Assembly: GCA_963711545.1 (NCBI GenBank)
Contig: CAVQEP010000014.1
Coordinates: 246,598 to 310,597, forward strand
DNA from: an uncultured Actinomycetes bacterium
Lineage (GTDB): Bacteria > Actinomycetota > Thermoleophilia > Gaiellales > Gaiellaceae
DNA length: 64,000 nt
Direction of reading: 5' to 3'
The notes beneath the pieces are model-generated. The model searched no databases. It was given only the letters and a program-made list of their open reading frames with translations, and was not told the DNA's origin. This document shows, piece after piece, positions 9,212 to 9,957 of the stretch. The position numbers and the translations under genes are program-made. Every line of letters starts with the position of its first letter. Within the stretch, counting starts at the first letter, position 1.

Positions 9212-9957
9212 AATAGAATTGCCCGAGCTGGAAGTAATTCCAGTGGAAAAACCGGCTAATAACGGGGAAGCCCTCCTCGTATGCGACGCTTCAAGGACGC
9301 CGCGACGCGAAAGGGTAATCCCGTGGGAAGTCGGCACAATCTGTGCCTGACCCCGTAACGACTGATCGTCCGTTTTGGACGTGAGATCGCATCTCCGTCG
9401 TCCGCATCGCGGGCTTCAATCTATGAGTGCGATCATACGCCGGCCCCAGAAGCAGTCGCGAGTTCCTCTCGGCCTATATCTCCGGGTTCGTCGACGGAGA
9501 GGGGTGCTTCACCGTATCCATCTCACCTCGCGTCACGCTCGCGGTGGGATGGGAGGTGCGGCCGAGCCTCTCAGTCAGTCAGAACGGAGACCGGGCCGAG
9601 GTGCTTCAGCTGATCCAGGCTCATCTCGGGTGCGGAAGCATCCGGCCTGACCGCAGCGATAAGACCCTCAAATGGGAGACACGGCGACTCAAGGACATCC
9701 TCGGGCGCGTGGTCCCCCACTTCGAGCGGTACCCATTGCTGTCGGGAAAGCGGTTGGATTTCGAGCGTTTCGCAATCGTCTGCCGGTCGATGGCAGTCGG
9801 CGAGCACCGAACTACAACCGGTCTGATCGGTATCGTCGAGCTCGCCGCGCGCATGAATCCGAGCGGCAGGCGACGATACGACGCTGAAGCGATTTTCGCG
9901 AGTCTGCGTCAAGGGTGAAGGGATAGTCTGCGCCTCCGGAAACGGAGGATTCACGCG
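9212..9957 (+). mobile_element. Group I intron (candidate) in 23S rRNA domain IV, carrying a LAGLIDADG endonuclease ORF
   Basis: Removing 9212-9957 restores the universal sequence ccttgtcgggt/aagttccgacctgcacgaatggcgtaa. The 5' exon ends in T (9211) and the insert ends in G (9957). P1: tcgggt (9206-9211) pairs with gcccga (9221-9226), with U.G at the splice site. There are GNRA hairpins at 9227-9243 (GTAA) and 9933-9948 (GAAA), and a gatagtc core-like element at 9922-9928. Confidence 0.8.
9427..9918 (+). CDS. LAGLIDADG homing endonuclease (single-motif, I-CreI-like size, 163 aa)
   Basis: ORF inside the intron. The motif LSAYISGFVDGEGCF lies near the N-terminus. The downstream pattern (SVSQ..DR.VL..I...LGCG.IR, VVPHFERYPLLSGKRLDFERF, HRTTTGL..IVELAARMN) is typical of this family. 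GTG start with no obvious SD. Confidence 0.85.
   Translation: MRSYAGPRSSREFLSAYISGFVDGEGCFTVSISPRVTLAVGWEVRPSLSVSQNGDRAEVLQLIQAHLGCGSIRPDRSDKTLKWETRRLKDILGRVVPHFERYPLLSGKRLDFERFAIVCRSMAVGEHRTTTGLIGIVELAARMNPSGRRRYDAEAIFASLRQG

Follow-up and report, generated by a model that had tools for sequence, protein, structure and literature searches.

Organization of the interrupted 23S rRNA gene

The window analysed here is a stretch of 64,000 nucleotides (nt) from an uncultured Actinomycetes bacterium (assembly GCA_963711545.1, contig CAVQEP010000014.1, positions 246,598 to 310,597, forward strand). It carries a single rRNA operon, whose 23S gene is interrupted by an insert of 746 nt with the features of a group I intron and an open reading frame (ORF) for a predicted LAGLIDADG homing endonuclease. 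The 16S (5423-6969), 23S (7178-10906) and 5S (11018-11134) genes all matched full Rfam models. The 23S gene covered LSU_rRNA_bacteria (RF02541) completely (model positions 1-2925, 2816.8 bits), yet its match measured 3729 nt against the 2925 positions of the model, and the Rfam local alignment displayed one insertion of about 748 nt that falls in the loop of helix GUCGGGUAAGUUCCGAC. The main features are:

7178-9211, + strand: 23S rRNA 5' exon, ending with U9211 = E. coli U1951 (RF02541)
9212-9957, + strand: predicted group I intron, subgroup IA-like, 746 nt, 60% GC (comparative core, intron-less relatives)
9427-9918, + strand: predicted LAGLIDADG homing endonuclease gene, 163 amino acids (aa), GUG start, UGA stop at 9916-9918 (PF00961, Protein Data Bank (PDB) matches, structure model, ratio of nonsynonymous to synonymous substitution rates (dN/dS))
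9958-10906, + strand: 23S rRNA 3' exon (Rfam match)

The split of the gene and its 9211/9958 boundaries had been proposed in an initial annotation, made without database searches, and both direct reading and Rfam agreed with it: the 5' exon ends with ccttgtcgggt at 9211 and the gene resumes from 9958 with aagttccgacctgcacgaatggcgtaa (aagttccgacc). Due to an AA beside both junctions, the sequence alone would allow the boundary to slide by 1-2 nt. It was fixed at 9211/9212 and 9957/9958 because of the group I rules, which place a U before the 5' splice site and a G as last intron base; such a terminal G was found in 40/40 homologous inserts. With the numbering of E. coli K-12 rrlB, the U of CCTTGTCGGGT falls at 2092-142+1 = 1951, and insertion after U1951, in helix 71 of 23S domain IV, is thereby confirmed (site L1951). 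Another E. coli strain gave 1949 for the same U because its rrn copy is 2 nt shorter upstream. Helix 71 is an intersubunit-bridge helix.

With only one rrn operon to be seen in the window, the interrupted gene might be considered an assembly chimera or a non-expressed pseudo-copy of the operon. This is very improbable: its 16S, 23S and 5S genes match full models and stand in normal order behind tyrS, and the same intron was found in the same place, with near-identical flanks, in two independent assemblies (L081 and L082; homologous loci are designated here by three-digit numbers), the second of which also shares the downstream genes.

Structure of the group I core

The insert could be folded into a group I core made of the elements listed below. 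The endonuclease ORF (9427-9918) and helices P3, P4-P6, P7.1/P7.2, P8 and P9.0 were absent from the initial annotation.

9206-9226, + strand: P1, exon UCGGGU and intron AAU paired with AUU and guide GCCCGA (local fold; U.G in 39/39 homologues)
9228-9243, + strand: P2 hairpin, 6 base pairs (bp), GUAA loop (local fold; double changes in 6/6 pairs among homologues)
9252-9256, + strand: P3 5' strand CCGGC, partner 9439-9443 (100% of cells paired, 4/5 pairs covary)
9262-9324, + strand: P4 (9262-9267/9319-9324), J4/5 AA, P5 (9270-9274/9312-9316) and P5 extension hairpin (9/11 P4/P5 pairs covary)
9325-9354, + strand: P6/P6a hairpin GGG..GUC GGCACA AUC UGUGCC U GAC CCC (local fold z=-3.1; covariation count)
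9360-9364, + strand: P7 5' strand GACUG within the invariant block GUAACGACU, partner 9924-9928
9367-9381, + strand: P7.1 hairpin CGUCC GUUUU GGACG (local fold; equivalent hairpin after P7 in every homologue)
9385-9434, + strand: P7.2 stem GAUCGCA (9385-9391) / UGCGAUC (9428-9434) with inner hairpin (local fold; homologue stems read by eye)
9439-9443, + strand: P3 3' strand GCCGG, within the ORF, codons Y-A-G (comparison, covariation, RNAalifold)
9445-9455, + strand: P8 5' strand CCCAGAAGCAG, within the ORF, partner 9904-9915 (6/6 basal pairs covary in the family)
9904-9915, + strand: P8 3' strand CUGCGUCAAGGG, final ORF codons (comparison, covariation, RNAalifold)
9916-9928, + strand: J8/7 UGAAGGGA and P7 3' strand UAGUC (9924-9928), conserved GAAGG.AUAGUC block (Rfam alignment, alignment of homologues)
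9930-9957, + strand: P9.0 (9930-9932/9954-9956), P9 hairpin 9933-9948 with GAAA loop, omega-G 9957 (fold z=-3.3; P9 and P9.0 covary)

Several of these elements had already been recognized. The pairing of UCGGGU (9206-9211) with GCCCGA (9221-9226) was borne out by a local fold of z=-6.2, equalled by 0/200 shuffles, and P1 turned out to be 3 bp longer (9212-9214/9218-9220), thus covering 9206-9214/9218-9226. The U proposed as 5' exon end forms a splice-site wobble (U9211.G9221) that is kept as U.G in all 39 homologues, and the conservation of the terminal G likewise agreed with the omega-G assigned to 9957. A P2-like GUAA hairpin and a P9-like GAAA hairpin were found again, the latter closed by a P9.0 of 3 bp. 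For P7, the segment 9922-9928 did contain the 3' strand, while the partner suggested for it, cgact at 9359-9363, was one base off at each end. More generally, local folds of P1-P2, P6, P7.1/P7.2 and P9.0-P9 matched the assigned helices.

The two extra hairpins P7.1 and P7.2 sit between the P7 5' strand and the P3 3' strand, and the P7.2-equivalent stems of homologues, read by eye, differ in sequence. Such hairpins are the hallmark of subgroup IA, which points to an intron of IA type. A finer placement among IA1, IA2 and IA3 would presumably be IA3-like, and the Coxiella burnetii intron Cbu.L1951 is classed as IA3, which would fit the P7.1/P7.2 of the present element.

Support for this structure was mainly comparative. 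Pairing was counted for the hand-drawn structure on an alignment of 39 introns (ORF cut out, MAFFT alone, L019 excluded for length), the controls being partners slid by 1-3 columns and 500 shuffles. Standard pairs occupied 86.7% of cells, compared to 33-45% after sliding and 70.9% after shuffling. Double-sided changes were observed in 37/54 pairs, and the covariation score of 0.42 (versus 0.16) was reached by 0/500 shuffles. P3, for instance, occurred as CCGGC/GCCGG, CCCGC/GCGGG, CCCAC/GUGGG, CCAAC/GUUGG and CUGAC/GUCAG, among others, and P8 as UCUCGC/GCGAGA, CCUGAUC/GAUCAGG, UCUCAC/GUGAGA, CCUCAUC/GAUGAGG and further variants. RNAalifold, run blind on the same alignment, placed P1, P2, P3, P4, P5, P6 and P8 at the same columns. 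The window deviated at only 2 of the 99 columns conserved at >=80%, one of them being the compensated P8 pair C9447-G9913.

The covariance-model check named in the initial annotation also gave a match, since RF00028 (Intron_gpI), searched on 1 kb, aligned end to end with 9202-9949 (25.2 bits, E=4.4e-4), below its gathering score of 50. This low score, together with the misassignment of P3' and P8 around the 490-nt ORF, is due to the fact that the model lacks the P7.1/P7.2 hairpins. Rfam placed P3' at about 9365-9371 and P8 at 9370-9381/9908-9916, an assignment that was rejected as comparison gave P3' at 9439-9443 and P8 at 9445-9455/9904-9915. The early hairpin read as P8 by Rfam corresponds to P7.1 by comparative data, and the same P3'/P8 data led to the rejection of a hairpin at 9377-9403 as P8, which would have put the ORF in J8/7. 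A natural ORF-less homologue (L066, 305 nt, 83% identical to the 5' core of the window) obtained the best Rfam score (43.7 bits, E=4.5e-10), and its alignment to RF00028 displayed P3 and P8 as assigned here, the P7.1/P7.2 stretch being handled as an insertion. The group I identity initially claimed for this domain IV insert is thus supported by covariation, RNAalifold and the L066 score, and class membership may be considered as established on structure and homology, even though the scores lie under the Rfam cut-off. Since the RF00028 gathering score misses this lineage, routine annotation would leave such introns unlabelled and would split or mis-size the 23S gene.

An alternative mentioned in the initial annotation was that RNase III excises the insert as an intervening sequence and the ends stay unligated, which would give a fragmented 23S rRNA. 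Bacterial 23S genes often contain intervening sequences (PMC4990558; PMC11270868). Yet, the known ones are short stem-loops that take the place of helices, helix 45 for instance (PMC4990558), not 746 nt in helix 71, and neither the complete covarying group I core nor the homing endonuclease gene is accounted for by such a sequence, which makes this explanation extremely doubtful.

The predicted homing endonuclease gene

Two thirds of the insert belong to the ORF, which lies in the P8 loop and also covers parts of P7.2, P3', J8/7 and P8 (both strands). The 163-aa protein displays a single motif, YISGFVDGEG, with E25 as its motif-ending acidic residue, and one full LAGLIDADG_1 domain (PF00961, residues 18-118, 83.8 bits for a cut-off of 23.1, E=1.8e-23). 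No NCBIfam model matched it. PDB matches went down to 7e-36 (4lq0) and included each half of the I-OnuI/I-LtrI/I-SmaMI family as well as single-domain enzymes. A structure model derived from 27 sequences (mean predicted local distance difference test (pLDDT) 80, predicted template modelling score (pTM) 0.80) gave I-TnaI (PDB 5gkk; template modelling (TM) score 0.73-0.85, 34% identity), I-Vdi141I and I-CeuI as best fold matches. I-TnaI is the enzyme of the Thermotoga 23S intron and I-Vdi141I an archaeal rRNA-intron enzyme. The single-motif LAGLIDADG fold is alpha-beta-beta-alpha-beta-beta-alpha; the monomer model rendered the motif segment as a strand (pLDDT 65-72). Residues D23-G24-E25-G26 were unchanged among close relatives and, by reading, E25 aligned with the catalytic Asp20 of I-CreI. 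The helix-71 DNA, GTCGG-GTAAGTT-CCGAC, is almost a palindrome and the intron is inserted at its central bases; such a target would suit a homodimeric endonuclease.

The family stop codon is nearly always the UGA of J8/7 or a UAG inside the P7 3' strand AUAGUC, and the window uses the J8/7 UGA. Most database relatives were called as 199-aa proteins, and calls of this length came from the close relatives L081 and L082. Both display CAGGG where the window has CAAGGG; because of this one A fewer at 9911-9912, the J8/7 stop is missed and the frame runs 70 nt into the 3' exon. The idea that the 163-aa ORF is a truncated copy was therefore rejected, as it is the 199-aa forms, without this A, that overrun the usual stop of the family. 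The extra A of the window may be either real or a homopolymer error.

At the other end, the GUG start (9427-9429) lies inside the 3' strand of P7.2. The ORFs of L003-L005 begin farther upstream (M/V-A-N-L-W...), and their UGG is matched in the window by UGA (9424-9426) with the GUG directly after it, so that the start seems to have moved in the window relative to these three. Cyanobacterial 23S introns provide known cases of ORFs extending into the core (PMC1995217). On a more speculative reading, with the start codon, P3' and both P8 strands all within the ORF, folding of the ribozyme and translation of the endonuclease would be mutually exclusive, which would amount to a built-in switch.

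The dN/dS of the gene was 0.20 with respect to L082 and 0.14-0.25 with respect to L003-L005; a value of 0.59 was obtained with the nearest relative L081, from very few changes. The gene is intact and selectively constrained. The RNA could nevertheless splice while the ORF no longer codes for a working nuclease, being either a decaying gene or a pure maturase at a late stage of gain and loss. Arguments of this kind may be drawn from the dN/dS towards L081, from the GUG buried in P7.2 with no clear ribosome-binding site, and from relatives with broken frames (L022, L011) or devoid of an ORF (see below). They are set against a full-length domain, an invariant D-G-E-G motif, the low dN/dS at longer distances, a stop codon at the canonical family position and a LAGLIDADG fold predicted with confidence, so that we regard a decayed or repurposed nuclease as unlikely.

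Distribution, relatives and mobility

Database searches gave 3176 relatives of the 163-aa protein at E<=1e-5 (more than 3,000 protein clusters), the closest among the matches listed belonging to metagenome-assembled genomes (MAGs) of Thermoleophilia, Planctomycetaceae, Acidobacteriota and Acidimicrobiia. A search for the identical endonuclease sequence gave no match in the index used, from which the source genome is thus absent. A bacterial scan with one genome per species uncovered at least 461 confirmed loci, and inserts were examined in the best 80. Among these, 39 displayed an insert of 690-840 nt at the identical 23S position, four more carried ORF-less inserts of 252-341 nt at L1951, and the remaining ones had related endonucleases at other 23S sites. 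The ORF-less L1951 introns (L066:1115-1419, L036:1898-2238, L075 ~3571-3867 and L078:3624-3875) came from MAGs of Actinomycetes, Solirubrobacterales and Acidimicrobiaceae.

The same intron was found at the same site in MAGs of Thermoleophilia, Gaiella and Acidimicrobiia and of at least 10 other phyla. Besides the former three, the hosts listed in the scan comprised Acidobacteriota, Gemmatimonadota, Dormibacteria, Gamma- and other Proteobacteria, Nitrospinaceae, Planctomycetes, Chloroflexota, Aquificaceae, Omnitrophota, Elusimicrobia, Margulisiibacteriota and several groups of the candidate phyla radiation (CPR). Two or three introns per 23S gene (L1917, L1931, L1951) were frequent among non-CPR MAGs of many phyla (L011, L034, L015, L004, L069), e.g. 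740 nt at L1931 and 758 nt at L1951 in Gaiella sp. L011, or 811, 690 and 756 nt in L034.

Two side observations concern close relatives. The syntenic locus L082, whose rrn operon is followed by the same M24 and M48 peptidase genes as in the window, displays a second LAGLIDADG_1 ORF (6557-7150) farther 3' in its 23S gene, which does not occur in the window. Among species-representative MAGs, the two nearest (L022:3001-3496 and L011:3001-3488) have frameshifted endonuclease frames while their ribozyme cores look intact; these broken frames could be endonuclease decay or indel errors of long reads.

Metagenomes were scanned with the uninterrupted junction preceded by 70 nt of lineage-specific upstream sequence, and this junction with its lineage-specific flank was present in 77 contigs. 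The closest of these intron-less ones (L155, L127 and L122) were 96.8-97.4% identical to the spliced 23S of the window over up to 2983 nt, whereas the nearest intron-bearing species representative (L022) was more distant, at 93%. The intron-less relatives join 9211 directly to 9958, which is the predicted junction. Given this exact junction and level of identity, both alleles, with and without the intron, occur side by side in a narrow clade. The ORF-less introns and the frame-broken ORFs are further stages in the cycle of gain, decay and loss that homing endonuclease genes are expected to undergo.

The correlation between endonuclease identity and host rRNA identity was weak (rho 0.44) with clear outliers, such as a Planctomycetaceae MAG (68% for the protein, 76% for the rRNA) and a Solirubrobacteraceae MAG (38% and 85%, respectively). 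This suggests transfer between phyla.

Comparison with known introns

The intron and ORF of the window are homologous to at least 39 bacterial L1951 inserts, CPR ones included, and the element belongs to the L1951 intron/endonuclease kind encountered in Coxiella burnetii, CPR bacteria and organelles. The Coxiella intron Cbu.L1951 shares with it the gene, the insertion after U1951 and a single-motif LAGLIDADG protein; by site, size and protein class as published, 720 nt and 157 aa (PMC1995217) may be likened to 746 nt and 163 aa in the window. That intron is reported to be spliced from the 23S precursor (PMC4990558). Its host is a gammaproteobacterial intracellular pathogen that also has an L1917 intron 34 nt upstream, in contrast to the single 23S intron of the window and its high-GC, Thermoleophilia-like free-living lineage.

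In CPR bacteria, 23S position 1952 is a frequent place for LAGLIDADG_1 insertions (Tsurumaki et al. 2024, PMC11270868), which have the same site and protein family as the present element, and those of L010, L019-L021, L037 and L063 also share the ribozyme core. In the CPR study, 45% of 23S insertions were classed as group I by the Rfam model (PMC11270868), a figure that is in line with, rather than a demonstration of, the sub-threshold scores obtained here. The Thermotoga L1931 intron is another bacterial 23S group I intron with a single-motif LAGLIDADG gene, whose enzyme I-TnaI was the top structural match to the predicted protein. Yet, it is inserted 20 nt upstream of the present site and its ribozyme is IC1-like without P2 (PMC1995217), unlike that of the window. 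The Chlamydomonas chloroplast 23S intron with I-CreI, like other organellar LSU introns with single-motif LAGLIDADG genes, resembles the window by a homodimeric enzyme of the 163-aa class and a peripheral-loop ORF reaching the core, and a P7.1/P7.2-type extension is shared with L2593 introns (PMC1995217). It differs by its site (L2593) and organellar host, and chains derived from I-CreI/I-MsoI matched the window protein distantly (~1e-9 to 1e-11).

Papers as late as 2021-2024 (PMC11270868 among them) describe such introns as confined to Coxiella, Simkania, Thermotoga, a few cyanobacteria and CPR, and a 2021 paper described multiple endonuclease introns as extremely rare outside CPR. PMC11270868 treats them as a CPR hallmark with few species elsewhere, whereas the copy in the window is from Actinomycetota. 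The many non-CPR phyla recovered in our genome scans contradict this recent description. No report of such an intron in Thermoleophilia or other Actinomycetota was found in the literature searched. The initial annotation had considered the host as unusual, a statement that stands for this literature but not for public genomes, considering the distribution described above. The element itself is new by its host alone, a Thermoleophilia/Gaiellales-like actinomycete; mildly novel is the scan-based frequency of such introns beyond that of the literature.

Genomic context

The rrn operon lies between tyrS upstream and peptidase genes, dnaG and tRNA-Asn downstream. On either side of the rRNA genes, the segments 1964-5087 and 11725-25957 hold genes for a prolyl oligopeptidase and TyrS, then for an acyltransferase, peptidases of the M24 and M48 families, an AAA regulator of LuxR type, DnaG and tRNA-Asn, with no mobile-element genes adjoining the operon among them; the surroundings are ordinary chromosome. 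GC content is 67% for the window, 60% for the intron and 57% for the rRNA exons. The 23S gene was 93% identical to that of a MAG of uncultured Actinomycetes and 90-94% to those of Thermoleophilia and Gaiella MAGs, and the host would by this similarity be close to Thermoleophilia/Gaiellales MAGs. Its domain I displays two short lineage-specific expansions (~17 and ~25 nt, at 7460-7535) relative to the Rfam consensus, unrelated to the intron.

Proposed splicing and homing

The explanation that we consider highly probable is that of a mobile L1951-lineage group I intron of subgroup IA type, with a gene for a homodimer-type LAGLIDADG endonuclease in its P8 loop. The intron would be transcribed as part of the pre-23S rRNA and its RNA would fold into the P1-P2 / P3-P8 / P4-P6 / P7-P9 core. 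An external guanosine bound in P7 would attack the bond after U9211, held by the U.G pair of P1. The freed 3'-OH of U9211 would then attack the bond after omega-G9957, positioned by P9.0, whereby helix 71 would be rejoined (GUCGGGU/AAGUUCCGAC) and the intron released. The 163-aa protein, translated from the precursor or from the excised intron, would dimerise and cut intron-less 23S rDNA at the helix-71 sequence. Repair of the break from an intron-bearing copy would result in homing, and in spread across lineages as well.

Several observations weigh against this explanation. The RF00028 scores of both the window (25.2 bits) and L066 (43.7 bits) remain below the gathering threshold of 50, and none of five relatives (L016, L018, L023, L028, L040) matched RF00028 at gathering level. 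P7 is invariant in the 39 sequences, i.e. consistent with pairing but with no covariation possible. In P8 of the window, the pairing (3+2+4 bp) is broken up by an internal loop and one A.G mismatch, neither of which occurs in the closest relatives. The alternative pairing P10 (U9219-U9220 with A9959-A9958) is weak, with 2 bp. No obvious Shine-Dalgarno sequence precedes GUG 9427, itself buried in P7.2. Finally, the evidence is sequence-based, splicing of the 746-nt insert being inferred from it, and the L1931 23S group I intron of Simkania negevensis is unspliced according to the title of Everett et al. 1999, as listed in PMC11270868.

Some of these points would fit an element that is a group I intron by descent but splices poorly or no longer here, and that is retained in the mature 23S rRNA or depends on the encoded protein as a maturase. 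In addition to the Simkania precedent, the less regular P8 and the weak P10, a maturase-like activity is known for the LAGLIDADG protein of the Thermotoga neapolitana L1931 intron (PMC3984707). However, 97 of the 99 conserved core positions are intact and every helix can pair, 746 extra nt in helix 71 should be costly, and the element has been kept across many lineages with compensatory changes that make sense only if the fold is used. Lost or poor splicing is thus improbable in our view. Against this and the three other alternatives considered above stand the core, with its conservation and compensated pairs, and the two independent assemblies (L081 and L082), which leaves the mobile L1951 intron as the preferred explanation.

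Significance

For this genome, the 23S gene needs a two-exon annotation and the ORF should be described as an intron-encoded endonuclease rather than as a hypothetical protein. Standard annotation under-detects such introns, the Rfam gathering score missing the lineage and gene callers giving 199-aa read-through ORFs; carrier lineages can be affected by broken primers, probes and rRNA-based profiling. The window provides an intact example in a poorly cultured actinobacterial class, whose intron-less close relatives are natural targets for tests of cross-phylum homing, and it is a possible source of a new meganuclease specificity of the 22-bp class.

Existing knowledge of how such elements work is unchanged by this intron. 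At a wider scale, the more than 460 species-level genomes, the more than 3,000 protein clusters, the multi-intron 23S genes of non-CPR phyla and the failure of the Rfam gathering score lead us to propose, tentatively and short of an even balance of probabilities, that 23S endonuclease introns are no rarity and may form a pervasive inter-phylum pool in soil and sediment, of which the window would be the first described actinomycete (Thermoleophilia/Gaiellales-type) member.

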